NCBI GenBank assembly: GCA_030429585.1
Contig: JAUIEU010000001.1
Span: 353,982-417,981 of the forward strand
Origin: a bacterium
Lineage (GTDB): Bacteria; Cyanobacteriota; Vampirovibrionia; Vampirovibrionales; Vampirovibrionaceae
Reading direction: 5' to 3'
DNA: 64,000 bases
Shown here: positions 4,160-61,209 of the stretch, piece after piece
Position numbering within the stretch: the stretch's first letter is position 1
Layout of the letters: each line of letters opens with the position of its first letter
Notes under the pieces: generated by a model
Databases searched by the model: none
The model's input: only the letters and a program-made list of their open reading frames with translations
Told to the model about the DNA's origin: nothing
Program-made: the position numbers and the translations under genes

Positions 4160-4190
4160 CTTGCTTGTAAGGCAACGTTGAGTGGGCTAT

Positions 4191-4378
4191 GCGCTACGGA
4201 TAAACGATTGATTCTGTGGCCGGGATGGTGCGTAGCTTGCGAGGAAAGCAAAATAGTTGCACGGAGTGTGCGCTACAGATAAACTATCGTTTCTGTGGCC
4301 GGGGTGGTGCGCGGCTTGCGAGGAAAGCAAAATAGTTGCACGGAGTGTGCGCTACAGATAAACTATCGTTTCTGTGGT
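4191..4378 (+). repeat. 2.4 tandem copies of a 79-bp unit (units start at 4191, 4270 and 4349) that run directly into tRNA-Pro
   Basis: Exact 79-bp periodicity. Each unit contains a degenerate copy of the tRNA 5' end (cgggatggtgcgtagcttg versus the true cgggatgtagcgcagcttgg) plus a TTGCAC-N17-TAAACT promoter-like pair (4257..4285 and 4336..4364). Confidence 0.85.
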
Positions 4379-4455
4379 CGGGATGTAGCGCAGCTTGGTA
4401 GCGCACGTCGTTCGGGACGACGGGGTCGCAGGTTCAAATCCTGTCATCCCGACCA
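4379..4455 (+). tRNA. tRNA-Pro (anticodon CGG), CCA encoded
   Basis: Hand-folded cloverleaf. Acceptor stem CGGGATG/CATCCCG, D-stem GCGC/GCGC, anticodon stem CGTCG/CGACG with loop TTCGGGA (CGG), T-arm GCAGG-TTCAAAT-CCTGT, discriminator A, then CCA. Confidence 0.9.
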
Positions 4456-4493
4456 ATTTTTATTGATAGACTTTTGCGGCGGCTAGAATTTTT

Positions 4494-5336
4494 ATGTCAT
4501 CCTTTTTTAGTGCTGAGGATTTGCATGAGTTAAATACAATTTATCAAAAAGTTAATTCTGATTATGAAAATTTATTACTCACTTATACTTATTATTTACA
4601 ACTAACAAATGAAAATGCGAATGAACATAAACAGCAGGGGTTTCTTAGGCGGTGTAGATTGTTAAAGAGAAGTATTGACAAAGTTTTTGAAATTTCTCCA
4701 TCTTAGTTAGATATGTATCTGGATGATGAACAATTGTCCGATATAAACATATATTTGCATTCTTTTATGATTAATTTGTATGGTTGTATAGAGAACTTGG
4801 CTTGGGTGTGGGTTAAGGAAAGTGGTTTTAAATACGAATATAAAGACTAATTTCGTTTTTATAATTCTAAAATTATTAATGGCTTTTCGGAGGAATTTCG
4901 AGACTATATTAATTCGGATGAATATAAAGACTGGAGAAGTCACATCGATAATTTTAGGCATGCTTTAGCTCATCGAATACCTTTGTATGTTCCACCAGCA
5001 ATATTTAATCGAGATGATAAAGTTAGATTTGATGAGATTGAGGCGAAAAAAGATGAACTTTTAAAAAATATTATGGTAATTGCTCGTAACGAAAATAATA
5101 ACTTGCTTTCGGATGTGCTGGCACAGCAGGATGTGGCTTTCAAAGAAATAAATGAGCTCGAAGCGGAAGGTCAAAATTTAGGACAATACACCCCAATAAT
5201 GACTCACTCTTATTCAGAAGGGTCTCCCAAGATTGTATTCCATGCACAGCTATTGGCGGACTGGTCTACTATTATTAAGATATCAAAGCTGTTTTTTAAT
5301 GAGCTGAATTATCAGAAAGGCATAAATGGTAATTGA
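4494..5336 (+). pseudogene. stop-disrupted ~280-codon reading frame with a HEPN-like Rx4H motif (possible decayed defence / abortive-infection-type gene) in a low-GC islet
   Basis: ORFs 4494..4706 and 4983..5336 and the open segment between them are all in the same frame. That frame is interrupted only by a TAG at 4704 and a TAA near 4849. The middle segment encodes ...DWRSHIDNFRHALAHRIPLYVP (R-x4-H). GC is about 33%. Confidence 0.45.
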
Positions 5337-5408
5337 TCTATAGTGTGTTTAACATAGCTGATATGAGTGGATAAAGAGCGAAATTGAAGTGATAAATTGC
5401 CACAATGC

Positions 5409-6914
5409 CTAAACATTGCCCAGGGTTAGTTGGTAATGCTTTTCAATTTCGTAGACTGAGTTTTTGTGCTCAATTAATTTTAATTCAGCATCTGCTGCGG
5501 AACGTTCGCGCTGGTTTACTAAAAACAAGGTGGTATCGCCTAGGCGGAACCGGATTCGTTCGCCCTCGGCTAGTTTTTTAGCGGTTTCATATTCTAGCTT
5601 AGCAGCTAAATATTGTTGGTGGCGGGCGGCCCATTCACTGGCCACGTCTTGTACTTCAATCCTAATTTGTTGGGTAATCTGTTGGGCCTCTATGGCAAGT
5701 TGGTCCATGCTTAATCGTGCCTGCCGCCGATCGCCTAATGGTTTGCGGTAGCGCAGGGGGATGTTCATCTGTATGCCGGCTTTAAATACAGGCCCAATAC
5801 TGTTGTTGCCTGTTTCCATACCATGGATAGCGCTGACATCCAGTTGGGGTAATAAATTATTAGTGGCCAGTGCTTTATCCACGGCAGCTAAGGTTTGTGC
5901 TAAACCAATCAGCTGGGGGGTGGGCCGTTGCTGTAAGGCGGTTACCGTATCACGCTCTTGTTGGTCAGCACCGGGTGGCGCAGGGGGGGTATTACCCGAG
6001 AGCCCAATTAGGCCCGGCGTTAATAGTCGCGCGTCTAATAGCATAGGGGTTTGCTGCGTTGCCACTAGCTCGCCTTTTTGTTGGGCAGGCTGCCAAAGGT
6101 ATAGCCCTAGGGCTAAGGCTTTCTCCTGCTGTGTTCGGTTTGTTTGTGCTTGCTGGCCTTGCCGTTTGGCTACCTCTCGTTTGGCTTCAGTGGCTACAAT
6201 GGCCGCTTCATCACCTAAGTCTACACGTTGCTGAATTTGATTTAACCGTAACGCCGCCAGATCGTTCAAATCGTCTACAACCGCAATACTTTGCCAGCTG
6301 GCCACCCACTGCCAATAGGTAATGTTCGCTTTGGTGAGTAGTTTTAAAGCGGATTGCCGGTACTTAATGCTTGCCATCAGTTCTTTTATTTTGGCTTGCT
6401 TTAGAGCGGCTACTTTTTCATTCATTAAAAAACCACGCAGCAAAGGTAGTTTTACCCCCCAGTAATATTCGCCGCCATCACCCGTAGGGGAGATGGGAGT
6501 TTTAATATCGCCAAGGGCTAATTTTCCTCCTGCTATAGCGGTTAAGCCAACAGAGGTAGGTAGGTTTAAGGTGACTTCATTTTCGCTTCCCAGTTGGGCT
6601 TTGCCTTCGACACTAGAGCTGTTGAATCGCTGGGTTTGGCTATTACCATTCACATAGGGGTCAAAAGCCCCTTGCTTGGATAAACGATTAGCGCCAGCAA
6701 TACCAATTTCTAAAGATGCCTGCTGCATATCGGGGTGATAGTTTAGAATACGTTCGATAAATGCATGGTAGGTTAAAGTATCAGGCGGTTTTTGTGTGAT
6801 TGGGTTTGGGCTGTTTGGTTGGGCAGCAGGCGAGTTGTTTTGGCAATACCCAATGGCGGTAATACCTATTAGGGAATAGGCCATTAAAAATAAGGTAAGC
6901 CAAAGCCGTTTCAT
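5409..6914 (-). CDS. TolC-family outer-membrane efflux protein (type I secretion OMF)
   Basis: 501 aa with an N-terminal signal peptide. It is the last gene of an ABC-HlyD-OMF operon. Confidence 0.8.
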   Translation of the reverse strand: MKRLWLTLFLMAYSLIGITAIGYCQNNSPAAQPNSPNPITQKPPDTLTYHAFIERILNYHPDMQQASLEIGIAGANRLSKQGAFDPYVNGNSQTQRFNSSSVEGKAQLGSENEVTLNLPTSVGLTAIAGGKLALGDIKTPISPTGDGGEYYWGVKLPLLRGFLMNEKVAALKQAKIKELMASIKYRQSALKLLTKANITYWQWVASWQSIAVVDDLNDLAALRLNQIQQRVDLGDEAAIVATEAKREVAKRQGQQAQTNRTQQEKALALGLYLWQPAQQKGELVATQQTPMLLDARLLTPGLIGLSGNTPPAPPGADQQERDTVTALQQRPTPQLIGLAQTLAAVDKALATNNLLPQLDVSAIHGMETGNNSIGPVFKAGIQMNIPLRYRKPLGDRRQARLSMDQLAIEAQQITQQIRIEVQDVASEWAARHQQYLAAKLEYETAKKLAEGERIRFRLGDTTLFLVNQRERSAADAELKLIEHKNSVYEIEKHYQLTLGNV

Positions 6915-6920
6915 TGCACG

Positions 6921-8348
6921 CTATTTCCGTTTTTTAACGGTTTTTAATAGTTTGGCGTCATCTTTAAAGGGGTCTTTATGGGGGCCAAAGCTAGTGGGCT
7001 TCATACCGTAATAATCTGGGGTGGGCGATACTGTTGGCGCGAACCCGTTAAACTGACGCCACAATTCAAACCAAATGGGCACGGTATCTAGCAATACCCA
7101 ACCAAGCGCCTGGCTTCCTGGCCGTAATACAGTGCTGTCGGGCCAAGGTTCTTCAGTGCCATTTTTAACGGCGTTTTTATCCGGTTTTACTAAAATGCGG
7201 TACATGCTGGCCCCATCATCGGTGGCATCTATCGCAACGATTGTTCCAGCAAACGTGCCCCGGCTTACACCGGGCCAACCCGCAAACTGAATAGCAGGGA
7301 ACCCGGCAAATTGTAGGCGCACTGGCCGCCCTACAGACAGCAACGGCGCGTTCCAATCAGCCACATAAAGTGCGGCCGCCAGGTCATTTGTTTGTGGGGT
7401 GATTTTAATAAGCGGTGTATCCGCCTTAACGGTTTCGCCTTTGCCTAGCTTAAACACCCGAGTTACTTGGCCGGATACTGTTGCGTGTATTTCTCGCTGC
7501 TCTTGGCGCTGTTTTAGGCTGGCCAGTTTGTTATTGAGTTTAGCGATATCCTGCGTTAGCTTAGCCGATTTTTCTGCCAAACTGGCCTGCTTTACCATCA
7601 CATCTTGCTGTTTAATATTGGTTTCGGCGGTTTTTTCGCCGGTGGCAAAACTAGCAATGCTGCGTTCTTGGTTGGCAATGTCTACACTGGATTTGGCTTC
7701 TTGTACATCGGCTTCTGCTTTGGCCACAGCCAATTGGGCTAATTCTAAATCGCGTTTACTGCGGAGCCCATTCGCGTACAATTCTTCTCGGCGGGATAGA
7801 TTGATTTGTGCCGTTGCTTGGGATTGTTCTGCGGCGGCTAGTTTTTGCTTAGAGGCGGCTATTTTTTGTTCTGCCTGACTAATTTTAAGTTGTGCTGCAG
7901 GAACAGCTGCTTGCTGTAGCGTTTGCTGGCTAACGAGTTGGCTCCCCATAATACCCAGTTGTTGCTGAATAGCTTGCTGTTGAGCCGTTAAAGCATCCCG
8001 TTCTTGTTGTAAACGCGCCAACTGATTAGGGTCTAAATAATCGGTTTTGACTTCTTCTAATGATAGTAACGCATCGCCCTGGTTGACCCATTCGCCTTCC
8101 GTAACGTGCCACTGGGCGATGCGGGCATCAATTTGGGCGTTAATGGTTTGGGGCCGCTCCATGGGTGAGAAAACAATGACCTCGCCTTTGCCCATAATGT
8201 TTTGTTGCCAGGGGGTTAGCCATAGGCCAAGCACCACGGCCAGTAATAAAAAACCAAGCACCCATGCCAACTGTTTGGCGTACCCATGGCTGCCAAGGCG
8301 GCTAAGGGCGGAGTTGGTAGATGACGATGCTAATTTAGCAAATGTCAT
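6921..8348 (-). CDS. HlyD-family membrane fusion protein (type I secretion)
   Basis: 475 aa with a single N-terminal TM (LAWVLGFLLLAVVLGLWL), a long Q/A-rich coiled coil and a C-terminal beta domain. Its start overlaps the ABC gene stop (TAATG at 8346..8350). Confidence 0.85.
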   Translation of the reverse strand: MTFAKLASSSTNSALSRLGSHGYAKQLAWVLGFLLLAVVLGLWLTPWQQNIMGKGEVIVFSPMERPQTINAQIDARIAQWHVTEGEWVNQGDALLSLEEVKTDYLDPNQLARLQQERDALTAQQQAIQQQLGIMGSQLVSQQTLQQAAVPAAQLKISQAEQKIAASKQKLAAAEQSQATAQINLSRREELYANGLRSKRDLELAQLAVAKAEADVQEAKSSVDIANQERSIASFATGEKTAETNIKQQDVMVKQASLAEKSAKLTQDIAKLNNKLASLKQRQEQREIHATVSGQVTRVFKLGKGETVKADTPLIKITPQTNDLAAALYVADWNAPLLSVGRPVRLQFAGFPAIQFAGWPGVSRGTFAGTIVAIDATDDGASMYRILVKPDKNAVKNGTEEPWPDSTVLRPGSQALGWVLLDTVPIWFELWRQFNGFAPTVSPTPDYYGMKPTSFGPHKDPFKDDAKLLKTVKKRK

Positions 8349-10105
8349 TAAAACCGCCCCCCATTACCGCTTAACCGTTCGGAGAGATCCGGGAACAGTA
8401 ATGAAAATTGGCCGCCAACATTTTTTGCTAATACTTCTGGCGGGCCGGATTCTGCAAAGTTTCCGTCGATTAAGACATGGGCCATATCGGTCCGTTGCAC
8501 AATTTCCGCATCGTGAGAAATATTTAGAATCGTCCACGGGTTTTCTGACGAAAAGAGCTTTTCCAAAATCCCCAGCTTGGTTTGCTCATCCATCCCTGTA
8601 AACGCTTCATCTAAAATAAGCAGTTTAGGTTGCTGCACAATGGCGCGGGCCATTAAAATTCGGTGGCGTTGCCCTAAGGATATATTGGTGCCCGCCGTTG
8701 TAATGCGGTGCTGCAAGCCATGCGGGTACTGTCGAAGATCGCGCGCCATCATTACCATATCTATGGCCCAGGCTAAGGCGCCTTGCGGCAGTTCATCTGC
8801 GGTTAAGCCCAGTAAAATATTATCTTCTACAGTGCCTTCAAACAGCTCGTATCCATCGCCTACCAACGCAATAGCCTTGCGTAGTTCCGGTAGTTTGTAT
8901 TGCCGAATATCGACGTCATTCAGGGTGATTTGGCCTGAGTGGGTATCGTGTAGCCCGCAAATAAGCCCAGCTAAGGTGGATTTGCCCATACCGCTGGGGC
9001 CGACAACGCTAGTGTGGCTTTGGGGCGGTAAATTTAAGCTAAGGTGCTGCACCACGTTTTTTTCTGGGCGGTACCCAAAGGTAATATTGTGGCACTTTAG
9101 GTGCAGCCCGTGGGTAATATCTGGTAGCGAGGTCCCATCCACGCGCTCTTGCTCAAAGCGGAGCACTTGGTGGACTTTATCTACAGCAGCCAGAAGGTCG
9201 TAACCGGATTCTAAATACTGTACTAACTTATCGGTGGCAGACAAGATGAGGAGGATAACAATTTCGCTAGCGACTAATTGCCCTAGGCTCAGTTGCCCGT
9301 TCATGACTAACCAGCCGCCAATCATCAGTACGCCGGCAGTAGCCATTGCTTCTAACATAAAATTAGCAAAGGATTGGCGAACGACGACGCGAAAGTGTCG
9401 TTGCCGAGCATCTAAAAATCGGTGCAATAAGCCATCTGTTTTGCCGAGTAAGGTGCTAGGGGCCCCATTCATTTTAAAGCTAATGCGGCTTTGCCCCATT
9501 TCTTCTAACCACTGGGCTACCCGGTACTTGGCCGCGGATTCGTCTAAGCTAGAGCTGTAGCCCCCGTAACCCAGCATAAAAATGGCGACCATACCCACTA
9601 AAAAAGTGATGTTAAACAGTAGAAACCATGGGCTGTAAAAGCTAATTAACAACATGCCAAGCATAATTTGTAATACAGAAGCGGGGCCATCTAATAATAG
9701 CTTGGCTAAGGTTTTTTGAATGGTGAGGACATCAAAAAATCGATTCAGTACCTCTGGGGCGTAGCGTTGTTTAAAGGCCACCTCGCTAACAGATAGCAGC
9801 TGGCTAGAAATAGACATGGCCGTTGTTAAAAACACTTTTTGCTGAATGAATTCCACAAGCTGAAGCTGAAGTACCCGTAACAGGCCCACAAGGATGAGCC
9901 CTGTTAATACGGCCACACCCAATACTAAAATGGGTTGGTTAAAAATGCCGCTGGCCAGGCTGCCAATAAGCCCTTGTGCTGTTAAAGGTACCGCCAGGAA
10001 GAAGACGCCAATAAATACAGTGTAGGCAGCTACAAGCCCTATATCCTTGTGGCTAGGTGTAAGCAGTGCCCAAAGGCGTTTTAAATTGGTCCACACGCTA
10101 TCCAA
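8348..10105 (-). CDS. type I secretion ABC transporter (N-terminal TMD, C-terminal NBD; no C39 peptidase domain)
   Basis: Walker A GPSGMGKST, signature ISLGQRHRILMARA and Walker B LLILDEAF. 585 aa, HlyB-like without a peptidase. Confidence 0.9.
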   Translation of the reverse strand: MDSVWTNLKRLWALLTPSHKDIGLVAAYTVFIGVFFLAVPLTAQGLIGSLASGIFNQPILVLGVAVLTGLILVGLLRVLQLQLVEFIQQKVFLTTAMSISSQLLSVSEVAFKQRYAPEVLNRFFDVLTIQKTLAKLLLDGPASVLQIMLGMLLISFYSPWFLLFNITFLVGMVAIFMLGYGGYSSSLDESAAKYRVAQWLEEMGQSRISFKMNGAPSTLLGKTDGLLHRFLDARQRHFRVVVRQSFANFMLEAMATAGVLMIGGWLVMNGQLSLGQLVASEIVILLILSATDKLVQYLESGYDLLAAVDKVHQVLRFEQERVDGTSLPDITHGLHLKCHNITFGYRPEKNVVQHLSLNLPPQSHTSVVGPSGMGKSTLAGLICGLHDTHSGQITLNDVDIRQYKLPELRKAIALVGDGYELFEGTVEDNILLGLTADELPQGALAWAIDMVMMARDLRQYPHGLQHRITTAGTNISLGQRHRILMARAIVQQPKLLILDEAFTGMDEQTKLGILEKLFSSENPWTILNISHDAEIVQRTDMAHVLIDGNFAESGPPEVLAKNVGGQFSLLFPDLSERLSGNGGRF

Positions 10106-10275
10106 AGTTTAGCCCTAAGTACTCAAAACGATGTGTATACTCTAGCTAAAACGGGTTACCAAATACAGGTAATGTTAATAGATTTAAAAACAATATAACG
10201 GTATGTTAATGTTGCGAATTTCGTCAATAAGTAGGTGTTTATTACTATTGGTGTAGAGGGTTTGGTTTTTTACGT

Positions 10276-11961
10276 TTACCACCCATTGCCCCAACTGGTG
10301 CCACTATTGTTTTGCCGGGCGGCGATAATATTTTTTTGTGCCGTTTGTGCAGCACTTGTTGCGTAGTCATAATACCCAGATGTTTTTGGTACCCGACGAT
10401 AATATACCTGCGCCATAGATAAATGATGGATGGCTTTTTTCCAATTCCACCAATGGAAGGCCTTAATCCCAAGCCGGTCTTCGTAAAAGGCATGGGCTAG
10501 TATGGTGATGGGGGCATTCGGCCTTGTATTGGTCCAGTGCTCCATTAGCTTTTTAATAGGTTTGGTTTTGTTTCTGTTTAGGTAACACATCATTAGGCCC
10601 AGGTGCACGGCAGAAATATCTGGTGTTTGCTTGTTTAGGGCTTCAAACGATTTGGTGGCCGTACGGTACTTTTTGTTTTTAAGTTGATCAAAGGCCAGTT
10701 CTAATTGCGTCGCTAGTTTTTGGCGGTTTTCTCTAATGCCGCTTAGGCTGCCTGTGCGAAGGACATGAGGTTGAGGCGATTGGTACTGGTTGACCAGCAT
10801 GGCGACATCGTTAGCGCTTAACCCGCGTGAGAGGATATCGATATCGTGAGATTGGAGTGGGTTCATAATATCGTTGCGGTTAGGGCTATGGTGGGTTAAA
10901 CCTAGGGCGTGGCCAAATTCGTGGAGGATGGTGGCGTATTGGGATACATCGGTAGGTTGTTCGCCCTGTGGCGTGTGGGTGGCAATAGTAATATCGACAG
11001 AAAGCAAGCTATCGCCAAGGAACATGGCATTGGTATTGCCAACGTCTTGGAAGGGTTTATCCGTTTTGTTTAATGTGTCGGCCCAGTCCACAGTAATATC
11101 CGCCTGTGCTGGGTCAGGCACTTGCTGAAAGGACACCATGTTGTTGGTTTTGCTAGACCATTCTAGTAGTGCCTTATCTACTAAGGCGGCCCATTGGGGC
11201 TGGTACCCTTCTACATTTTTACCATCCATAACCGCTATTTTAATGGGCATGGCTTGCTTCATCCACAAGTAATCCATGCGGCGATTTTGTCCCTGTCCGT
11301 TTAATTCGGCAATTTCTTTGGCAATTTGGTTGTTAATAAAGCCGGTTTGTTTTTGCTCATGTTCAATGGCGGAATCAATATTGCGTTGGTTGCTGTTTAG
11401 GTTTTGTTGATTGTGGGCCAGGTGCCGGCGGGCGTCATCGCCAAGTAAGGGGTGGTTTTGGAAAGATTCCATGATGGCACGAGCTTGTTGCAGGTATTGT
11501 TGGGTTTCTTCCAAGCGGTTGTTTTGAGATGCAACCACAGCTTGATGGGTTAGCCACGTGCCCTGGCGGTAACGTAAAATATCATCGTAGCCTGGGGTCC
11601 CTTTTTTGCTGACAAACCGGGTAAATAGGTGCTGAAACCCTTCCCAGTCTTCCATGCCGGAGTAGCACATAAACAAATGGTCAACACGGATAGGTGTGGG
11701 CCATAGTTGGTAAGCCTTTTCGTACAGTGCTAAGGCCGCTTTGTAATCCTTATTCCGGGCAAAGCTATTCGCTTCGTTGCCAGCCTTTACCATGGCATTG
11801 TATTGGTCAACCTCTGCCCGGGTGACAGGTTGCTTGGTTACGCGTTCGATGTAAGCGTCTTCTTCGGTTAGAGACTGACTAAATGCTGGGGGTAGCATAC
11901 TAGTGCCAAAGGCAATAAATAGTGCAATGGCGAGGAAGGCATGCTTCATAGTGATACTCAC
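10276..11961 (-). CDS. secreted zinc metalloprotease of the metzincin type (HExxHxxGxxH) with TPR-like repeats
   Basis: HEFGHALGLTHH zinc-binding motif, a Sec signal peptide (MKHAFLAIALFIAFGTSMLPPAFSQ) and TPR-like helical repeats in both halves. Confidence 0.8.
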   Translation of the reverse strand: MSITMKHAFLAIALFIAFGTSMLPPAFSQSLTEEDAYIERVTKQPVTRAEVDQYNAMVKAGNEANSFARNKDYKAALALYEKAYQLWPTPIRVDHLFMCYSGMEDWEGFQHLFTRFVSKKGTPGYDDILRYRQGTWLTHQAVVASQNNRLEETQQYLQQARAIMESFQNHPLLGDDARRHLAHNQQNLNSNQRNIDSAIEHEQKQTGFINNQIAKEIAELNGQGQNRRMDYLWMKQAMPIKIAVMDGKNVEGYQPQWAALVDKALLEWSSKTNNMVSFQQVPDPAQADITVDWADTLNKTDKPFQDVGNTNAMFLGDSLLSVDITIATHTPQGEQPTDVSQYATILHEFGHALGLTHHSPNRNDIMNPLQSHDIDILSRGLSANDVAMLVNQYQSPQPHVLRTGSLSGIRENRQKLATQLELAFDQLKNKKYRTATKSFEALNKQTPDISAVHLGLMMCYLNRNKTKPIKKLMEHWTNTRPNAPITILAHAFYEDRLGIKAFHWWNWKKAIHHLSMAQVYYRRVPKTSGYYDYATSAAQTAQKNIIAARQNNSGTSWGNGW

Positions 11962-16836: not shown

Positions 16837-18159
16837 ATGAGACTTGCGAAACGTTTACTAGCCGGTACCGTGCTTACTGCCGTTACCCTACAACTTGCCT
16901 TGCTTAGTGCACCTGCCAATGCGGCATTAGATACCCAGAACCACTGGGCCAATAGCCATATTGACCAATTAATGCAACATAATATTATTGGTGGCTACCC
17001 AGATGGTACTTTCCGTCCGCAAAATACCATTACCCGTGCGGAATTTGCGGCCATCCTGTCTAAGGCGTTGCAGTTAGATACGGCAAGTACCGTGGATACA
17101 GGCTTTAGTGACGTGCCTATCAGCCATTGGGCTGCCCCTGCTATTACATCGGCTAAAAATGCCCAATTGGTTTCAGGCTTCCCTACCGGCGATTTTCGTC
17201 CTAACGAGCCGGTTAATCGGGCTGCGGTAATGGCGGTATTGGCAAAGGCTATCCCTGGCCAACCCGATGCTAACCAAACCCAATCGACCCTTAACCAATT
17301 TACAGATGCTAACAGCATCCCGAATTGGGCTAAAACAGCCGCTGCTGAAACTATTTTGCAGCAGGTGTTTGCTAATGAACCAAGTGCGGCCAATCGTGTG
17401 GATGCTAACCTGCCCGCTACCCGTGCAGAAGTAGCCGCCATGATGGATAAGTACCTAATGCGTAAATCTGTGGCCTTTGCTGCCCCAGGAGCCACACCAA
17501 ATACTACTGACACAACGTATACGGCCAACAGTACTATCACGCCTCAAAGCAACACGGCTAACACCACGTTGCATGGCCACGTGGCGACTATTCCAGAAAA
17601 CACGACCTTTAGCGCCACTTTAAAAACGGCGGTTAATAGCGAAATGGCTCAGCAGGGCGATACGGTATCTTTAACCTTGGATATGCCGATTGCCACGGCT
17701 GATAACACCATTGCTATCCCTAGTGGCACCACCATTGTGGGCGAAATTGCGGAGGTAAAATCCGCTAAACGCTTTGAAAATAACGCGATGGTGCAACTCA
17801 AATTCAAAGAGTTTGTTTTAGCCAGTGGCGAACGGATTCCGATGAAAGCCAGCATTGCGACAGACGCAAAAGATAATACTATCCATGGTGGCAGCGTTGC
17901 CGGTAGTACGGGCAAGGTAGCGACCAAAACAGCGGTTGGCGCTGGCTTGGGTGCTGCGCTTGGTACGGCCATGGGCCCACTAAGTGGCGGTAAGGTGGGT
18001 AAAGGCGCTATTTACGGTACCGCTATTGGTGCTGGCTTAGGCGCATTAACCGGTGTAGCCAGTAAAGGTAATGCGGTAGAGCTGCCTGCAGGCCAATCCC
18101 TGGTACTTACCCTGGATGAAAGTGTACAAGTAGGGGGCACCCAACAACCTGGCCAATAA
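16837..18159 (+). CDS. S-layer-homology (SLH) domain protein with C-terminal glycine-zipper region
   Basis: Signal peptide, then three SLH-like repeats (HWANSHIDQL...GYPDGTFRPQNTITRAEFAAIL, then SDVPISHWAAPAI..GFPTGDFRPNEPVNRAAV, and a third). C-terminal GAGLGAALGTAMG...AIGAGLGALTG. Confidence 0.85.
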   Translation: MRLAKRLLAGTVLTAVTLQLALLSAPANAALDTQNHWANSHIDQLMQHNIIGGYPDGTFRPQNTITRAEFAAILSKALQLDTASTVDTGFSDVPISHWAAPAITSAKNAQLVSGFPTGDFRPNEPVNRAAVMAVLAKAIPGQPDANQTQSTLNQFTDANSIPNWAKTAAAETILQQVFANEPSAANRVDANLPATRAEVAAMMDKYLMRKSVAFAAPGATPNTTDTTYTANSTITPQSNTANTTLHGHVATIPENTTFSATLKTAVNSEMAQQGDTVSLTLDMPIATADNTIAIPSGTTIVGEIAEVKSAKRFENNAMVQLKFKEFVLASGERIPMKASIATDAKDNTIHGGSVAGSTGKVATKTAVGAGLGAALGTAMGPLSGGKVGKGAIYGTAIGAGLGALTGVASKGNAVELPAGQSLVLTLDESVQVGGTQQPGQ

Positions 18160-20073: not shown

Positions 20074-20338
20074 GGTGTGCTTTCGGGTAAATTAGGTTAA
20101 TAAAAGTGGGTGAGGTAAATAGTTGTCAATTTAAGGCGTAGCCAGCCGTGCAATATGCATAATGAAGTGATTATGGCTTATTAGCAAGTATGGCGGCTAT
20201 TTTTCTTAGCCTGGCAGTATATCACTTAAATACGCTTGTAACCTTTTAACATTGCCCGTTGCTAGTTAAGTAAAATGTGACTGGGCACGTAACGAGATGA
20301 AACAAAAGGTATATTATTCGGATATGGCGCTGACAATC

Positions 20339-20392
20339 CGGACCTTTATATTGTTTTTATTATTTAAGAGATAAAATTAGGTGGAGACAACA
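20339..20392 (+). promoter_or_regulatory. copy C of a conserved upstream cis-element (ACAATCCGGACC-N7-TGTTTTTATTATTTAAGAG...AGGTGG)
   Basis: Near-identical 3' half to copy A at 24612..24660, with an 8/12 match to the GCAATCTGAATC 5' box. Confidence 0.6.
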
Positions 20393-20438
20393 ACCGTTGG
20401 TGTATTACTGCACCAACATAATTTGGGAGTATAAATAT

Positions 20439-20930
20439 ATGTTATTAGGATTAGCTTTAACAGCAGCCTCCGTTTTTGGTACCAAAAAAACGGCAGAAAA
20501 TGTTAAAAAAGAGATCGATAAAACTAACAAAACGGAAAGTGGGCAATCCTATTTAAATGCTAACCCATTTAACCAAGATGGCAATTTAAGTGTTAGAAAT
20601 ACAAAAGGGTTCCTGTTTTCTGCGTACGGTGATTACGCTGGTGAAGATGGGAAATACGATGTTACCGAACTTGAAGAATTAAGCCAAATCATTGAAGAAC
20701 GCTATGAAAAATTGGAAGGTAAGGAAGGGCGATTCGCTGAAAAGCTTGCCAAAAACCTTGGTAAGCAAATGGAGATGCTGGAAGCTTTGATAAACAACTT
20801 TAGCGAGATTAGTAGCGCGGATGATGATAGTGCAACACTAAGCAAAAAAGACATTAAAAAAACGGGCCGGCAACATAGTAACGGGTCTGGGTCCCAGCGA
20901 TATATAGATTTAAGCCGCCTTGGTGGCTAG
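20439..20930 (+). CDS. hypothetical secreted Lys/Glu-rich protein (~164 aa from the ATG at 20439)
   Basis: GGGAG is 9 nt upstream of the ATG at 20439. A signal-peptide-like MLLGLALTAASVFG follows. Low GC. The ORF track begins upstream at 20397. Confidence 0.5.
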   Translation: MLLGLALTAASVFGTKKTAENVKKEIDKTNKTESGQSYLNANPFNQDGNLSVRNTKGFLFSAYGDYAGEDGKYDVTELEELSQIIEERYEKLEGKEGRFAEKLAKNLGKQMEMLEALINNFSEISSADDDSATLSKKDIKKTGRQHSNGSGSQRYIDLSRLGG

Positions 20931-24611: not shown

Positions 24612-24660
24612 AAGCAATCTGAATCTTAATATTGTTTTTATTATTTTAAGAGTGGTATTT
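24612..24660 (+). promoter_or_regulatory. copy A of the conserved upstream cis-element (GCAATCTGAATC-N7-TGTTTTTATTATTTTAAGAG...AGGTGG)
   Basis: The 12-mer GCAATCTGAATC is identical to copy B. The 3' half is near-identical to copy C. Confidence 0.65.
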
Positions 24661-24712
24661 AGGTGGTGCCGTGTGTGTAGGCAAGCCTAACAAGTGGAGT
24701 GGAGTGTGGATT

Positions 24713-27034
24713 ATGACGAGCATTAGTAGCTCGCAGGCGTTTTATACAGCCTTGCAACAGCAACAAACAATTAGCCGAAGTAAACTGGAAGCCAAAGCTG
24801 ACAAAACCGTTCAGGGCAATGATAACTTAGCGGATATGCTGGATGCCATTAGCCAGATTGAAATGGAGCTTTTGACAAGAGAAGCCAGTGAGGATGAAAT
24901 CCGTGTTTCTACCGATGAACTGTCGAGCACGGTAACCCTGGATACAGGCTTGATGGGTACGATTAAAAAGGCGATTACCAAGTTTGAGCATAACTTGGAA
25001 TTGACGACGACAGAAATGGCGGCAGTTAGCAAATTTGTTAGCACGCTAGAAGGCGGTAGCCAATCAGAGTTGGCGCTTATGGGTGCAACGGAAGAAGAGT
25101 ATGCCGCTACCAAGGATTCTAAAAAAATTAAATATGAAACAGGTGTAACGGATGATGGCGTGGAATACGCCATTATGACGGGGTTAAGTACTAACTTTTT
25201 AGAAACCTTGCGCGAAGAAGCGTCGAATAAGAAAAACCCGACAAAAGAAGATATCGTACACCATCTTAATAAATTAGAATCTGGTGATAATAAAAATAGG
25301 CTAGACCAGGAAAAAATCCTGGGGTATCGCTTTATTTTAGATAATTGGAATGAATTGACCAAATCGGGCGGTAATAAAAAACTAACCAAATCCAACCTTA
25401 AGCAAATAGGCAAACTAACGGAAGATAATGGCTACGTTACCTTGGATAATGTGTCTATTTCTTCCACCCTGAAGAAGAATTACCACCGTAGAAAAGTTTG
25501 GGGAACAGTTGCCGGTGCTGTGGTAGCCACAGTGGCAACCATTGCAACGGGCGGCGCATTAGGCCCCGTGGCTGCGGGTGCGATTGGTGGCGCTGCAGGT
25601 TCTATAACCGGTGGTGTGATTGAAGGTAAGCCTATAGAAAATATTGTTAAAGATGCGGCCCTAGGGGCTGCCTTGGGTGCTGCCGGTGGCGCAGCAGCTA
25701 AGGGTGCCAGTGCGGCGGCAAGCAAAATTACAAAAAAAATGGCAGATGCAGCAATAAAAGAAGGTGCCAGTGGTTTAACTAGGGCGCTAACCGGTAAGGC
25801 AGCCCAAGCGGCTGTAGAGGGTGCCGTAAAAGGCGCCGCACGAAGCGTTACAACCGCTACCTTGAGCGATTTAGCTGATGATGGCCGTATTAATAACGTG
25901 GGTGGTATTGCAACACAAGCTTGGCGCGGAGCTGTCTCTGGCGCGGTGGCGGGTACTGTAACCCAACCCCTGGGCGATAATATGCTTGGCAACTCCTTAG
26001 AACGAGGGGTGCAGCAAACGGTGCAACGGGCCGCTAATGGCGAAACAGATATTGGCGGGCTGGTAGCCGAATTTGCCGGTGGCACGGTTTCTGGTGCGGT
26101 AGAGCATGGCCTTGGTAACCTAGCCGGTACCCTTGCCCCGAATAATGATAATAAACTTTTGAATGCCAGTTTAACAGGCGGTACTATTGGTTTTGCCTCT
26201 GGCATGGCAGGCGAGCTAACAGAAAGTGCCTTTGAAGGTGAGTTTGATGGTATTGAAATCCTAGAGTCGTCATTAGCCAATATGCGGAGTGGTGCTACAT
26301 CCGCCAGTATAGACAGTAGGGTTGAGGCTGAAAAGCAGCAGCAATTACAGCGCGAACGAGCAAAGCAACAACAGCCTGTATCTAGGGAGACCAACTACAT
26401 TTTACATTCAAAATTTCCGACTGCGTCTAATTGGGATATTGATAAATATTTAAATAACCCTTGGATTAATGAGGCTGAGCAGGCACCGAGTGAGCCTGTA
26501 AGCCCTTATTACCAGAAATCCGCCCCCATGTTCCCTGGTCTAGATGAAAAAACCGTAGACCTGAAGTGGCTTACGGACCAAAGTAACCAGTCGAATTCAG
26601 CTCCTGTTTATACGCCCTCTATGCCGTTTGGTGCACCTAACAATATTCCATCCTTTAATCAAGCTTGGAGTACCCCTGCCAGCTCTCAGAAAAGTAGTTC
26701 ACCATCTACTTCTATTAATAGAGGAGCTTCGTTAAACTTGCCTGTTGGTAGCCATTGGCAATTACCGCCCCCCCAGGCATGGCAAACAAACCAAGCAAAC
26801 CCCTATGCTTCTAACGCTACTGGGTCAACCACTCGTCATGGCATTGAAGGAGCCTATGACCTGGCGAATGAAGCAAAAACACATTTCGATGACTGGAATG
26901 CAGACCCTACATATGAAGGGAATCCACCCTTGGATCTCAGTGAAGGGTATAATGGGTATGTTCAGGATCGACAAAAGTCACAACATCAGCGTGGTTTCTT
27001 CAATCGGGTATTCGGTGGCAACCGGAAGAACTAA
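24713..27034 (+). CDS. large hypothetical protein with central Gly/Ala-rich glycine-zipper region (start probably the ATG at 24713)
   Basis: N-terminal helical region, then about 250 aa of Gly/Ala-rich zipper-like sequence (AVVATVATIATGGALGPVAAGAIGGAAGSITGG...), then a Q/P/S-rich C-terminus. Confidence 0.6.
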   Translation: MTSISSSQAFYTALQQQQTISRSKLEAKADKTVQGNDNLADMLDAISQIEMELLTREASEDEIRVSTDELSSTVTLDTGLMGTIKKAITKFEHNLELTTTEMAAVSKFVSTLEGGSQSELALMGATEEEYAATKDSKKIKYETGVTDDGVEYAIMTGLSTNFLETLREEASNKKNPTKEDIVHHLNKLESGDNKNRLDQEKILGYRFILDNWNELTKSGGNKKLTKSNLKQIGKLTEDNGYVTLDNVSISSTLKKNYHRRKVWGTVAGAVVATVATIATGGALGPVAAGAIGGAAGSITGGVIEGKPIENIVKDAALGAALGAAGGAAAKGASAAASKITKKMADAAIKEGASGLTRALTGKAAQAAVEGAVKGAARSVTTATLSDLADDGRINNVGGIATQAWRGAVSGAVAGTVTQPLGDNMLGNSLERGVQQTVQRAANGETDIGGLVAEFAGGTVSGAVEHGLGNLAGTLAPNNDNKLLNASLTGGTIGFASGMAGELTESAFEGEFDGIEILESSLANMRSGATSASIDSRVEAEKQQQLQRERAKQQQPVSRETNYILHSKFPTASNWDIDKYLNNPWINEAEQAPSEPVSPYYQKSAPMFPGLDEKTVDLKWLTDQSNQSNSAPVYTPSMPFGAPNNIPSFNQAWSTPASSQKSSSPSTSINRGASLNLPVGSHWQLPPPQAWQTNQANPYASNATGSTTRHGIEGAYDLANEAKTHFDDWNADPTYEGNPPLDLSEGYNGYVQDRQKSQHQRGFFNRVFGGNRKN

Positions 27035-35346: not shown

Positions 35347-37599
35347 ATGGGTAAGGGGTGGCCTATGTTAGAAGGGTTTAATCTGCTAAACACCAATACC
35401 TTGTTACTAGGTGCTATTGCGGCTTTGTTATTAATTATTTTGCTGGTTAATGTAAAGCGAAACCGTGCTGTAGCCTTGGCTAATGAGACGGCTGTTAGGC
35501 TGGCCAATAATAATACCCTGCTAGAGCTCTTAAGCATTATTTCTAATGCCACCAGTACCGAAGCCAGCGCTGAAGAATATATTGAGTTTTCGTTAGAAAA
35601 AGTATGTGAGTATATGGGCTGGCCTATCGGCCATGTGTATAAACTGGATGAAGCTACCCAGCAACTAAGCCCAATGGCCCTGTGGAAGTTAAGCGACCCA
35701 GAGCAATGGCAACCCTTTACTCAAGCCACGATGGCACTATCCTTTAAAAAAGATAGATGCTTGATTTGCCATGAAATGGCCAGCGGTAAGGTTGTTTGGG
35801 CGGATAATATTAGTGATGACCCAGAGTTTAAACGGCGGGATGTTGCACGAGAGCTGGATTTAAAAACAGGGTGTATCTTGCCTATTGTCATTAACGGGCA
35901 CGTAGCCTACGTATTAGAGTTTTACACGGAAGAGGCGGTGGCTAAATCGCCCAGCGTTGTCGAAACGCTGACCCAAATTGCCAGCCATATTAGCCGCGCC
36001 GTTAGTAAGCGCCAGTTGGAACAAAAGCTTCAGGATACAGCCAGGCGCTTTGAAGCTATCTTTAATCAAACCTTCCAGTTTATTGGGGTATTGTCGCCAG
36101 AAGGGTTGTTGTTAGAGGCAAACCAAAGTTCTTTAAAGGCATCTGGTGTAGACCCGGCTGATGTGATTAATAAGCCCTTTTGGCAGGGGCCATGGTGGGC
36201 CCATTCGGTAGAATTACAGGCGAAGCTAAGGCGTTCTATTCAACAGGCCGCACAAGGCAAATTTGTTCGGTTTGAAGCCAACCACCCGACGCCTAGTGGC
36301 GAGCTGTTAACGGTGGATTTTTCGTTAAAGCCCGTATTGGATGATGACGGCCAGGTGGTGCTTATCATCCCGGAAGGGCGGGATATTACTTACACCAAAG
36401 AGGTGGAAAAAAGCCTTATTTCCGCTAGAGAAGAAGCACTAAGTGCCAGTAAGGCCAAAGGCCAATTTTTGGCCAACATGACCCATGAAATCCGAACCCC
36501 ACTCAACGCTATTATTGGCTTTACCCAGCTATTGCTGGATAAAGACCTAGCCCCGGATGTCTATGATGATGTGAAAGTGTTGGAATCTTCTGGCAAAACG
36601 TTGCTGACGCTGGTGAATGATATTCTGGATTTATCTAAAATTGAGTCCGGTAAGATGACGTTGGAAATGGTGCCCTTTAACCTAAGCCATGCCCTTACGG
36701 AGCTGGCCAGCTTGTTTGAATACCAAGGCAGTGACTCGTTGGCATTTAACTTGGATTTATCTGGTGTGGAAACAGAACGCTTGGTGGGGGATGTGGGGCG
36801 TATTCGCCAAGTACTAACCAATTTTTTATCCAATGCGTTTAAGTTTACCAAACAGGGTAGTATTACCTTAAAAGCGTCATCTACCTTGCCTAACGAAGGT
36901 ATCTCTCGGGTGATTATTGACGTGATTGATACAGGAAAAGGGATTGATGAGGGCAAGCTAGAAACTATTTTCGGCGAATTTCTGCAAGAGGATGTGTCTA
37001 CCACTCGTCAGTATGGGGGCACAGGGCTTGGGCTAAGCATTAGCAAGCAGCTTGCGGATTTAATGGATGGCAGGATTCGGGTTAAAAGTGGTGTGGGGCA
37101 AGGGTCAACTTTCACGTTTTCCATACCATTGGCGATAGATTTAACGGTAGAAGAGCCAGGAAAAGACGATTTATCCAACCCTACGGTGGATTATGAGAAC
37201 TTGCAGGTGTTGTTGGTAGAAGATAATATTTTGAACCAAAAAGTAGCCCAACGGTTATTAGAAAAATTTGGCGCTACGGTCACGATAGCGTCTAATGGGT
37301 TGGAGGCGTTGGCGGTAGAGGATTACCACGCTTACCAAATTATTTTTATGGATTGCCAAATGCCAGAAATGGATGGGTTTACTACCACCCGTGCACTGCG
37401 CCATCAGGGGGTTAAAACTCCTATTATTGCTTTAACGGCCAACACCACCTATGAAGAACGTGAGAAATGCATGATGGCGGGGATGGACGCCTTTATGACA
37501 AAGCCTATACAACAGAATGAGCTGGTTGCTATGATTAACCACTGGGTACAGCCAGAGGCTGTCACCCTTCAGCGTGATAGGAGTAGCAGCTCCGGTTAA
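35347..37599 (+). CDS. hybrid sensor histidine kinase / response regulator (TM, GAF, PAS, HisKA, HATPase, REC)
   Basis: H-box [11 protein letters not shown]2 box [13 protein letters not shown], and a C-terminal REC domain ([10 protein letters not shown] ... [11 protein letters not shown]). Confidence 0.9.
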
Positions 37600-40723: not shown

Positions 40724-40810
40724 ATCGTGTGGCTTCCTACTTAATAATAAATACTTAGTTATATCTTAAGTATATATTCTGTAGTGACCATTTTTCATCC
40801 ACCAGGCGGG

Positions 40811-40852
40811 TATAAAATAAAACCGGATGTATACCTAATGGTCTACACCCGG
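40811..40852 (-). terminator. intrinsic terminator after the TM-helix-repeat gene
   Basis: Stem CCGGGTGTA/TACATCCGG (one mismatch) followed on the minus strand by TTTTATTTTATA. Confidence 0.55.
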
Positions 40853-40907
40853 CTTATAGATTAAAGATTATGGTTTGTTTGCCGAAAATACTCAGAATTT
40901 ATGGTGG

Positions 40908-42407: not shown

Positions 42408-42597
42408 GCCCCTACCTCCTCACCTGTAAATACAAATAGTAGGCAACCGTATTAGATTGCTACCCAATACATGGTACCAAAAAGGCACCTGTTTCTATAC
42501 GGCAGGTAACGGTGGCGGTGGCCAAAAAGCCAACAACCCCCGGCCACAATGGATAGAGGGTTGTTGAGAACTATGAATTTTCGGGCAAATAGAAGGC

Positions 42598-50061: not shown

Positions 50062-50212
50062 GAAGGGGTTTCCTTAAGAAAGTGCTATATAAGTGTGAAA
50101 TGGATAGGGTGACTGGCGCCAGTGTTACAAAATGTAAAGGCGGGGTTTCTCCCAAAAAGTTCGATGTGTGGCCATCATTATGGCGGGCTGTCTATAAACT
50201 AACACTAGTTGG

Positions 50213-57158: not shown

Positions 57159-57266
57159 GGTAGGCTAAGTAAGGGGGAAGCACGCTGTATATCAAAGGTC
57201 TATCGCTTTTAGGCGGCAAATACTATCGGTTGGTAATATAACAAATTGTTAAAATAATGTCACAAA

Positions 57267-57310
57267 AGGCAATCTGAATCGTTTGAGTGTTTTTATTAAT
57301 TCAGAGAGTA
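57267..57310 (+). promoter_or_regulatory. copy B of the conserved upstream cis-element (GCAATCTGAATC-N8-TGTTTTTATTAATTCAGAGAG)
   Basis: 12-mer identical to copy A, with the same TGTTTTTATTA box and AGAG tail. Confidence 0.6.
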
Positions 57311-57463
57311 AAAAAATAATGGCTCATAAGCATTGCGCTTACCGCTATTTATTATGCATTACCAAGTTTTAATAACCCCGCATTGTTATCAATGCATTTA
57401 ATAAAGATTTTTTTCGAGCAGAGAACATAATTTATTTTAGAGAGAGAACAAGGAGCTTACACC

Positions 57464-59344
57464 ATGGGATGGTCCGTAAATAATGCAAAACATGCCGCTA
57501 CTAACCAGGATTTAAGTGGCAAAAGTATTAAAGGTGATCAAAAGAAACGATATAACACCTTTTTAGGGCGTCATGAGATTGACAACTCTGACCTTACGAT
57601 TAACCAACGCGGTAAAGGTAACCAGATAAAACTTAACGAAAGTGATACCAACAATATCACCGCAAAACAGGTATCAACTTCTGCGTATGGCCGTAACATT
57701 TTTGATGTTAATGGCGACGATAACACTATTGACTTAACTCACAAAGGTGGCCGTTCTAGAGTTCGCACTACCGGTGATGGTACCCATTTAGACCTTGATT
57801 CAACAGAAGCCAAAAATACAACGAATGTCTTTAAAGGGAATGACTTTTTATCATCTTTCTTAAGCCTATCCGAAACCGGCCCCAACAACTTACTGGTTCA
57901 AGGTGATGCCTTTAACATTGGCAACATTACCGGTGGCGAAGATGTGGACCAGTTCATCTTTGATGGTAACGGCAAGATTGATTCTATTGAAACCCACGAA
58001 GGTAACGATGAAGTAACCTTTACCGGCGATGGACAAACCACTGCCGATGTAGACCTGGGCAAAGGCGATGACGTTGTTCGGGCCAACGGCCTAAAAGGTA
58101 AAGTAGAAGGTGGCGCCGGTACCGATACCGCTCGTTTCCGTACTACCAAAGGTAACAACAAAGTACAAATCAGTAATGTTGAAAACATCGAAATTGACGG
58201 TGTTGACCTAGGTGCCAATTTTGACTTGGCCACCGCCACGAAAGCAGACTTGCCCAGCGGCATGAGTTTTGAAACCGATTCCGATGGTAACCGCGCCATT
58301 AAGATTGGTGACAGCACCTATAACTTAGATGATACTGATTCAAACATTACGATTGGTGGCAAAACCCAATTGGCAAGCGAGTGGTTTACCCAGTTTGGCA
58401 GTACTGCGGCTCCTGTAACCACCGACACCATTGATGGTACGGTTGGTGATGATACCCTGGATGCTCGTAACGGTGACTTTACCGTAAATGCCGATCATGG
58501 TGATGACACCATCTTCGTTGATGGCGACTCTAGCGGTATTGTTCATGGCGGACGCGGTAACGATACCCTGACGTCTGAAGTTAAGTTAGGAGACTACGAC
58601 AACATTGTGTACGACGAGACCGATGATAAGTTCACCCTAACCAAAGATGGTAACAAACTGGTGGTGTCTGGCGATGTTGAAAACTTTGATTTTGACGGCC
58701 AAGCGTTAACCAAGCAAGAGCTAGAAGACCACGCCAAAAACCTGAACATTTTAAATAGCCTAGCCTTAGTAGAAGGTAACGCCCACGACGAAACCATTAC
58801 CAAAAACGGCACCGACTTAATGGGCAAACTGATTGACGGTAAAGACGGCAACGACACCTTAAAAACCGATGTTAAGTTAGTGGATTTAGCTAACATTACA
58901 GAAGTTGATATTAACGGTGTTAAAGGCTTCGAGTTAACAGACGCGAATGGCGATATCTCTCGTGTTGTTAACATCGAAAACTTTGACTTCGATGGCCAAG
59001 TGGTTAGTGCAGCAGACCTAATTAATGAATTCAAAAACCCCACCCCCATTCTAACGGCTGTTGATGGTGATGCCGGTAATAATACATTTGGAAATGGAGC
59101 TGGCAACGGCAACTATAGAGGCAGTAACTTCTTCGGAAACTTGTACGATGGTAAAGCGGGTTCTGATAGCCTGTGGACTGACCACCGTGTAGCTGACCTG
59201 ACATTCTCGTTAGTTGATATTAACGGTACTGAAGGAATTGAAATTGCTGATGCGAATGGTAATATTTCCCGAGTTCTCAATATGGAACACTTTAACTTCG
59301 GTGGTGTATACCAATCATATGCTCAACTTAAAGCCCGTGTTTAA
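57464..59344 (+). CDS. RTX-like Asp/Gly/Asn-rich repeat protein (candidate type I secretion substrate)
   Basis: AAGGAG SD 8 nt upstream. No N-terminal signal peptide. It has GGxGxDxUx-type nonapeptides (HGGRGNDTL, GGAGTDTAR, GKDGNDTLK) and three ~65-aa C-terminal tandem modules (..DG.xGNDTL.TDVKL.DL ... NxENFDFDGQ..). Confidence 0.7.
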   Translation: MGWSVNNAKHAATNQDLSGKSIKGDQKKRYNTFLGRHEIDNSDLTINQRGKGNQIKLNESDTNNITAKQVSTSAYGRNIFDVNGDDNTIDLTHKGGRSRVRTTGDGTHLDLDSTEAKNTTNVFKGNDFLSSFLSLSETGPNNLLVQGDAFNIGNITGGEDVDQFIFDGNGKIDSIETHEGNDEVTFTGDGQTTADVDLGKGDDVVRANGLKGKVEGGAGTDTARFRTTKGNNKVQISNVENIEIDGVDLGANFDLATATKADLPSGMSFETDSDGNRAIKIGDSTYNLDDTDSNITIGGKTQLASEWFTQFGSTAAPVTTDTIDGTVGDDTLDARNGDFTVNADHGDDTIFVDGDSSGIVHGGRGNDTLTSEVKLGDYDNIVYDETDDKFTLTKDGNKLVVSGDVENFDFDGQALTKQELEDHAKNLNILNSLALVEGNAHDETITKNGTDLMGKLIDGKDGNDTLKTDVKLVDLANITEVDINGVKGFELTDANGDISRVVNIENFDFDGQVVSAADLINEFKNPTPILTAVDGDAGNNTFGNGAGNGNYRGSNFFGNLYDGKAGSDSLWTDHRVADLTFSLVDINGTEGIEIADANGNISRVLNMEHFNFGGVYQSYAQLKARV

Positions 59345-60797: not shown

Positions 60798-61012
60798 AAT
60801 AAATACCCTAGTTGTTGTGGGCGTAGAATAGTGGCCTTATTGTACCCCAGCCAGTGGTGGGCTTCATCTGTATGGCGTGGCAAGGGTAAAAATAGCGTCA
60901 GGAGAGGGTTTCACCCCGCTTGAATTACCCGAATGATAACAGAGTGTAACATTTTGTGTGTTAAGGACACTAAGTAGTTGACCCTTTACCCACAACAGCG
61001 TATATTACTACC

Positions 61013-61098: not shown

Positions 61099-61209
61099 TT
61101 ATGTGGGGGGATTCAGTCCGAAGGGCACTATATTAAAATCCTGTTACAAAATTAAGGTGTTTTTAATACACTAACTTGACTCTCTCGGTTTCCGCCTTAT
61201 ACTACTACC

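Follow-up and report, generated by a model that had tools for sequence, protein, structure and literature searches.

A two-part promoter-like motif upstream of lineage-specific genes in the Vampirovibrionales

Promoters of alternative sigma factors are bipartite and stringent, have a fixed spacing and lie a short distance 5' of otherwise unrelated genes. Examples are the sigma-28/FliA promoter (TAAA-N15-GCCGATAA) and that of the Synechocystis group-3 factor SigF, a stringent and unusual promoter with TAGGC and GGTAA elements (PMC2532724). They lack a sigma-70 -35 element and mark small sets of non-housekeeping genes related to the surface or to export. The motif described here resembles them in these respects. 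However, it fits no sigma-28, SigF, sigma-54 or ECF consensus, its conserved blocks are longer (12 and 11 nt), and its downstream block has a sigma-70-like TATTAT. The motif is also similar to class II activator-dependent sigma-70 promoters, in which a good -10 is combined with a conserved box around -38 to -27 and no -35. This similarity leaves an invariant TGTTTT between box and hexamer unexplained, and neither a clear dyad nor a repeat at the helical period is seen in the upstream box of our motif (box 1). The Agrobacterium vir box is TNCAATTGAAAY. Box 1 of our motif, as CAATCTGAATC, resembles CAATTGAAAY with one extra base, a weak likeness that does not amount to membership. A vir-type type IV secretion system has been reported for Vampirovibrio. 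Promoters of T7/SP6-type single-subunit RNA polymerases (about 23 nt, ending in ...TATAGNGAG) are comparable: the motif, too, is unusually rich in information, and its presumed start is a purine-rich AGAG. They are contiguous, whereas the motif is bipartite, has no copies in 2.9 million viral contigs and precedes genes that lie amid chromosomal housekeeping genes.

The Vampirovibrionia (Melainabacteria) are the non-photosynthetic sister group of cyanobacteria. We found no published work on transcription signals in this group, and literature searches on the motif strings, the accessions and Vampirovibrio sigma factors or promoters returned nothing relevant. We regard the motif as a promoter signal not described before, from a lineage that has been little studied; the finding is solid, though modest.

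Structure of the motif in the window

The window is a stretch of 64,000 nt from a Vampirovibrionaceae assembly (GCA_030429585.1, contig JAUIEU010000001.1, positions 353,982 to 417,981). It has a GC content of 0.48, encodes LptF/G and BipA, and is also present in the Logan assembly of run ERR3428548. The two-part motif, GCAATCYGRAYC-N7-TGTTTTTATTA, spans about 30 bases and occurs three times, at 20333, 24614 and 57269. All three copies are intergenic and on the + strand, with a start codon 68-164 nt downstream. They are listed below under the letters of the genes that they precede (C, A and B); the whole elements were delimited by pattern extraction and by reading of the sequence.

20333..20384, +, copy C, whole element
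20333-20344, +, copy C, box 1, ACAATCCGGACC
between the boxes, +, copy C, spacer of 7 nt, TTTATAT
20352-20362, +, copy C, box 2, TGTTTTTATTA, including the -10-like TATTAT at 20358-20363
20367-20370, +, copy C, AGAG, candidate start
20377-20384, +, copy C, extra box, TTAGGTGG, otherwise only in copy A among the window copies
24614..24666, +, copy A, whole element
24614-24625, +, copy A, box 1, GCAATCTGAATC
between the boxes, +, copy A, spacer of 7 nt, TTAATAT
24633-24643, +, copy A, box 2, TGTTTTTATTA, including TATTAT at 24639-24644
24649-24652, +, copy A, AGAG
24659-24666, +, copy A, extra box, TTAGGTGG
57269..57308, +, copy B, whole element
57269-57280, +, copy B, box 1, GCAATCTGAATC
between the boxes, +, copy B, spacer of 7 nt, GTTTGAG
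57288-57298, +, copy B, box 2, TGTTTTTATTA, including TATTAA at 57294-57299
57303-57306, +, copy B, AGAG, inside CAGAGAG at 57302-57308

The first-pass annotation of this DNA had described a composite motif present three times, and we recovered all three copies upstream of the genes it named, whose products were as described (163, 773 and 626 aa). The sites were real but their positions had been off by 2-8 nt. An N8 spacer had been given for copy B, which was a miscount; the 7 nt found there make the spacing identical in all copies. The annotation also read the motif as a shared cis-regulatory element of the promoter or operator type tied to particular genes, and this idea is supported by the evidence below.

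The hexamer AGGTGG, in its fuller form TTAGGTGG, occurred only in copies A and C, exactly 10 nt past the first base of AGAG. It was partly retained, as TTTTAGGATAGG, at L036, the locus of the homologue of gene A. Copies A and C were also alike in six of their seven spacer bases and, with TTAGGTGG in register, had about 50 nt in common. The similar spacer and the extra box suggest that the promoter of gene C may be a captured copy of that of gene A. Part of the similarity between A and C within this genome may likewise reflect a recent promoter duplication rather than selection.

The window was scanned with the pattern CAATCYGRAYC-N7-TGTTTTTATTA, which specifies 22 bases. There were three perfect matches, and the runner-up site had at least 5 mismatches in 22. 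We also used a weight matrix, GCAWTYYRRAYC-N7-TGTTTTTATTAW, which was derived from the seven known copies (three here and four described below) and is hence overfitted to its own sites. With this overfitted matrix, the seven true copies scored 42-50 bits, compared with 10.5 bits for the next best site in about 110 kb of DNA of the same lineage and a maximum of 14.4 in shuffled sequences. Scores of 42-50 bits against at most 10.5, together with the gap in the pattern scan, indicate that the element is discrete and far above chance. Motif scanning of the source genome covered about 76 kb. The information content, about 40 bits, is clearly more than would be required to single out a handful of sites in a genome of a few Mb. 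It is possible that more than one protein reads the element, that some of the copies are young, or that the matrix is overfitted to the seven sites.

Copy B had one more feature. A direct repeat, AAAATAATG(T/G)C(A/T)CA(A/T)AAG, lies on either side of it (57251-57268 and 57313-57330, 62 bp apart), and the promoter of the homologue of gene B at locus L037 has AAAATAAT on both flanks of the motif. The repeat around copy B may serve gene B alone as an additional pair of operators.

Copies in related genomes

When one genome per species was scanned with the exact pattern (185,579 species), nine loci were found, and two of them were genuine: L001 and L005, one copy each in a Vampirovibrionales MAG and in a MAG labelled 'Cyanobacteriota bacterium'. 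Six Flavobacterium matches represented one conserved coding segment and were rejected, and a match in Ureibacillus was rejected as chance. The copies at L001 and L005 read GCAATCTGAATC-N7-TGTTTTTATTAT and were intergenic, 72 and 90 nt 5' of ATG. Two more copies were present upstream of homologues of window genes: GCATTTTAAACC-N7-TGTTTTTATTATTAT at L036 (gene A) and GCAATCCGAACC-N7-TGTTTTTATTAATACAGAGAG at L037 (gene B). A slightly looser pattern gave 24 matches in the whole metagenome collection. None of them continued with TATTAW...AGAG and none had a Vampirovibrionales-like context, and they were rejected as chance, adding no further copies. The scan of 2.9 million viral contigs found no copy of the motif.

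In total, seven copies were found across five genomes or assemblies, the four outside the window being in Vampirovibrionales and Cyanobacteriota MAGs. The motif is confined to a narrow, rarely sampled clade. With only seven copies in such a clade, the 'regulon' may be very small.

The consensus of the seven copies is gCAaTctgaAyC, an A/T-rich N7, TGTTTTTATTA(T/A), 3-4 nt and AGAG. Box 2 was invariant over 11 nt and the spacer was 7 nt in all of them. Box 1 varied among copies, mainly by transitions. AGAG was found 3-4 nt 3' of the -10 hexamer in six of the seven copies, and A/T tracts resembling UP elements were found 10-25 nt 5' of box 1, also in six of seven. Each copy was intergenic and oriented like the next gene, and the distance from the -10-like hexamer to ATG was 37-164 nt. 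Such a range of distances fits a promoter and not a translation-linked element.

We aligned the intergenic regions of gene A and L036, and of gene B and L037. In both alignments the motif was an island of conservation 5' of homologous genes in diverged intergenic DNA, as is expected of a regulon motif. In the comparison of gene B with L037, the motif was within a conserved block of about 85 nt (about 85-90% identical by eye), and the flanks were far less conserved. At L036, the homologue of gene A had unlike neighbours and the same motif 5' of it. Thus, the element tracks the gene and not the location. Between the window and L037, identity was 79% for CoaBC and 47-53% for protein B; given the CoaBC value, L037 belongs to a close relative and this comparison is not a deep one. 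The cargo protein B diverges fast and its putative promoter stays fixed, which makes this a tidy example of a constant promoter driving quickly diverging proteins. An essentially all-or-none signature of about 30 bp could also serve as a computational handle for listing co-regulated lineage-specific proteins, some of them possibly exported, in bacteria that are uncultured or hard to culture, and the motif could be used in phylogenetic profiling to search for its cognate regulator.

Near-identical copies in one genome, two of which (A and C) share about 50 nt, might also be expected from a non-functional dispersed repeat, that is, the remnant of a small mobile element or a segmental duplication. 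The same annotation had named dispersal at random positions or inside genes, and loss from the promoters of relatives, as what would speak against a regulatory role. The motif was never intragenic, and its orientation to the next gene was constant. A and B each have a single detectable homologue (L036 and L037), and 5' of both the motif was conserved, standing out as a conservation island in other genomes. There were no terminal inverted or direct repeats common to the copies, their flanks were unrelated, and viral contigs were without copies. We therefore consider a non-functional repeat hardly credible.

Promoter reading and its alternatives

We compared the motif with the consensus sequences of known promoter classes. 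A sigma-70 -10 hexamer could be recognized: TATTAT, which agrees with TATAAT at 5 of 6 positions, was present in five copies, and TATTAA (4 of 6, without the final T) in copy B and L037. A -35 hexamer could not. At 16-18 nt upstream, six of the seven copies had hexamers (AATCTG, ATCTGA and similar) that match TTGACA at no more than 2 of 6 positions, and a consensus scan found no sigma-70 promoter at the motif or anywhere in the intergenic regions of A and C. The sigma-28/FliA consensus (TAAA-N14-16-GCCGATAA) was matched at 5-8 of 12 positions across the seven sites, in inconsistent registers. For sigma-54 (TGGCAC-N5-TTGCW, with GG at -24 and GC at -12) the agreement was 5-6 of 11, with GG/GC missing in most copies. 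For the cyanobacterial group-3 SigF (TAGGC at -32, GGTAA at -12) it was 5-6 of 10, again in inconsistent registers. The 3' half of box 1 (TGAAYC) resembles the -35 element of ECF promoters, which are GGAAC-like with a CGT-containing -10 at 15-18 nt, but no CGT was found 15-18 nt on. No ungapped vir box within 2 mismatches was found and the window showed no enrichment of such sites, so a vir-box reading was rejected. Box 2 as the -35 (TTGTTT) of a downstream sigma-70 promoter was rejected for want of a consistent -10 16-18 nt on, and a small ORF spanning the motif was rejected on account of stop codons and the unconserved spacer.

Ordinary sigma-70 and sigma-28-like promoters occur elsewhere in this lineage, the latter in the form TAAA/TAGA-N15-(G)CCGATAA. 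As the housekeeping and flagellar consensuses are ordinary there, the motif would be a separate class and not the version of a known one used by this host. We propose it as a possible third promoter class in the lineage, beside the canonical sigma-70 and sigma-28 types.

Judging from sequence, the motif is most likely a specialised promoter that would switch on a small set of lineage-specific genes. The best reading seems to be a dedicated promoter class, read either by an alternative sigma factor or by sigma-70 with an activator. Our preferred version, to which we give a probability of about 0.45, is that box 1 is the -35-region contact and box 2 the extended -10 contact of an alternative sigma factor, with transcription starting at AGAG. 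Box 2 (TGTTTTTATTA plus T/A) would then be an extended -10 region with the hexamer TATTAT/TATTAA, and the start would be about 5-8 nt 3' of the hexamer, at the conserved AGAG. Box 1 (GCAATCYGRAYC), at the fixed distance of 7 bp, would cover about -38 to -27, the place of a sigma-70 -35 element, which it does not resemble. One dedicated alternative sigma factor of the Vampirovibrionales-like host might read both boxes, and the few genes that carry the element, which encode lineage-specific and fast-evolving proteins, would be switched on together. Several observations argue against this version. No gene for a sigma factor or regulator was found next to the copies in the window, and an invariant block of 11 nt plus a box of 12 nt exceeds the usual information need of a sigma factor. 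In addition, TATTAA in copy B and L037 is without the conserved final T of a sigma-70 -10.

Sigma-70 assisted by an activator is possible but on the unlikely side. TATTAT/TATTAA would be an ordinary -10, box 1 a class II activator site replacing the -35, and the T-rich stretch in box 2 would act as a spacer or an extended element. This would account for a good -10 hexamer with the -35 missing, and box 1 has the position of a class II activator site and resembles two (C/G)AAYC half-repeats separated by 6 bp. Its drift between lineages (for example GCATTTTAAACC at L036) beside a fixed -10 part is what a co-evolving activator would produce, and the window encodes a hybrid sensor kinase (35347-37599), adjoining no copy. 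However, an activator over the -35 leaves the invariant TGTTTT 5' of the hexamer unexplained; its TG sits 4 nt 5' of the hexamer and so is outside the extended -10 register. The missing final T of TATTAA is a difficulty here as well. Moreover, the halves of box 1 form neither a palindrome nor a clean direct repeat at the helical period, and no DNA-binding regulator is encoded nearby.

An improbable alternative is an operator, bound by a repressor or a nucleoid-type silencer over a weak promoter, which would silence AT-rich genes of recent acquisition as long as a signal is absent. Genes C and B do have a lower GC content (0.398 and 0.442) than the window (0.483), the element overlaps the -10 region, and the extra AAAATAATG repeat, 62 bp apart, flanks the motif in copy B and L037. 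But a symmetric operator for a dimer is not formed by the two boxes, whose sequences are unrelated; a silencer of AT-rich DNA would need no specific motif of 23 bases; and no other promoter was detectable in the intergenic regions of A and C.

The motif might also act after transcription, as a structured or protein-bound 5' UTR, and a structured leader RNA was among the possibilities suggested at first. Box 2 is U-rich as RNA and similar to Hfq/RNase E sites, and TTAGGTGG, which the leaders of A and C have in common, is, apart from one bulge, the complement of CCAACCTAA in candidate small RNAs (61013-61400). The predicted folds of the leaders nevertheless differed among copies and none was unusually stable (z-scores -1.6 to +0.1), and across the whole window only tRNA-Pro reached the gathering score in Rfam, leaving the leaders without a match. 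The conserved part lies 5' of the likely transcription start. An arrangement of two conserved boxes around an unconserved spacer of fixed length, with nothing that could pair, suggests protein-DNA contacts. In addition, the distance to ATG varies (37-164 nt), and no promoter was found upstream of the motif in A and C. An RNA-level element is thus very improbable and the structured leader is not upheld.

A more far-reaching version of the preferred dedicated promoter is speculative and rather unlikely. The motif might be the recognition sequence of an uncharacterised lineage-specific sigma (or sigma-like specificity) factor of the Vampirovibrionales and act as a switch for fast-evolving effector-like proteins (RTX-like, glycine-zipper membrane-active and glycine-rich), possibly as the attack-phase or predation programme of these bacteria, which prey on algae. 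Promoter capture would then bring in new genes, the orphan C among them.

Downstream genes and other features of the window

Three genes follow the motif in the window, each preceded by a Shine-Dalgarno sequence:

20439..20930, +, gene C, 163 aa, rich in K and E, with a hydrophobic N-terminus and a GC content of 0.398
24713..27034, +, gene A, 773 aa, with a glycine-zipper/hydrophobic core between a helical N-terminal part and a disordered C-terminus
57464..59344, +, gene B, 626 aa, an all-beta solenoid rich in D and G, with RTX-like Ca-binding repeats

Searches of Pfam and NCBIfam assigned no domain to any of the motif-preceded genes; the one exception was a marginal S-100 match (22.6 bits, cut-off 22) in a longer ORF containing gene C. 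Gene C itself is an orphan, with no homologue but itself in a collection of 5.8 billion proteins. Protein A, which had no Pfam or NCBIfam match, had a single homologue, P0002 (40% amino acid identity); its predicted structure was poor (pLDDT 36), and its one confidently folded domain had four matches among 1.84 billion representative proteins. Protein B also had a single homologue, P0004, with 47% identity in BLASTP and 53% in a MAFFT alignment; the two genes are syntenic, beside coaBC. It was modelled as an all-beta solenoid (AF2 mean pLDDT 70.7) with GGxGxD-like repeats. At the sequence level it was weakly similar to an RTX adhesin/antifreeze protein in the Ca-bound beta-helix of the latter (3p4g, E 1e-4), and a fold search gave weak RTX-type matches, including RTX block V of CyaA (target TM-score 0.71) and type-I-secreted lipases. 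Protein B is thus RTX-like by sequence and by predicted fold.

The products had been taken for secreted factors at first. This is partly supported, and best for protein B, which appears RTX-like and whose secretion would be plausible given a type I secretion operon in the window; it is the one of the three whose putative export has fold-level support. It fares less well for A and C, where export is suggested by the glycine-zipper/hydrophobic core and the hydrophobic N-terminus, respectively.

The products of the genes at L001 and L005 are rich in glycine and of low complexity, and the two may be related (pairwise E 0.02). The L001 gene (199 aa, glycine-rich) lies directly 3' of motA-motB-fliL-fliM-fliN, of which fliN was identified by Pfam and the rest by reading the translations. 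A near-perfect sigma-28 promoter, TAGA-N15-GCCGATAA, was seen at 2374-2348 (- strand) of L001, 25 nt 5' of ATG. As it is located between the motif copy and the ATG, the L001 gene would have two tandem promoters. This arrangement hints at a possible link between the motif regulon and motility.

The leader of gene C contains an 8-bp hairpin, CGTTGGTG...CACCAACA, at 20395-20418, about 20 nt 5' of the ribosome-binding site, which was absent from the other leaders.

Several secretion-related loci were observed in the window. On the - strand, 5409-11961 contains the type I secretion operon (5409-10105; TolC-like, HlyD-like and ABC transporter) and, adjoining it, a TPR plus matrixin-like metalloprotease. 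The operon is a candidate exporter of the RTX-like protein B. A two-partner secretion locus occupies 38837-52045 on the - strand:

50213-52045, -, ShlB/FhaC-type transporter
42598-50061, -, passenger of 2487 aa with no Pfam match
38837-40723, -, second TPS-domain protein

In pattern and matrix scans, neither of the two secretion systems, type I and two-partner, nor the metalloprotease had a copy of the motif. At 16837-18159, two N-terminal SLH domains were combined with a TrbI (VirB10-like) domain that scored below the Pfam cut-off (26.5 versus 35 bits). Such a protein would be an unusual cell-wall anchoring of a conjugation or type IV secretion component.

A gap of 1.2 kb with no ORF longer than 64 aa (60830-62020, + strand; 5250-5955 in L037) seemed to contain at least three to four candidate small-RNA genes conserved in L037; Rfam gave no match there. 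Two sigma-70 promoters that agree with the consensus at 10 of 12 positions, TTGACC-N17-TATATT and TTGACT-N16-TATACT, are at 60978-61006 and 61176-61203 and are conserved in L037. The first candidate RNA has a terminator found by scanning (61073-61093) and the second a hairpin with a T-run at about 61377-61400, read by eye. Both of these sigma-70-type candidates have the C-rich ACTCCCAACCTAA, which is anti-Shine-Dalgarno-like. Gene C has the ribosome-binding site TTGGGAGT (20423-20430), to which ACTCCCAA in the candidate small RNAs is exactly complementary. A calculation of small RNA-target duplexes was rejected, since it gave implausible structures and energies. In the same gap, sigma-28-like sequences, GCCACT-TAAA/TACA-N14-15-NTCGATAA / AACGATAA, occur at about 61541-61567 and 61770-61797 (about 5905-5931 in L037), and a strong terminator follows the first of them at 61649-61676. 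These sites could drive small RNAs dependent on the flagellar sigma factor.

Near the other end of the window, a 79-nt tandem repeat (4190-4397; 2.6 copies, 90% matches) extends into the 5' end of the tRNA-Pro(CGG) gene (4379-4455), and an AT-rich stretch (4460-5400, GC about 0.42) lies 3' of this tRNA gene. The repeat could be an integration remnant or could represent duplicated tRNA promoters.
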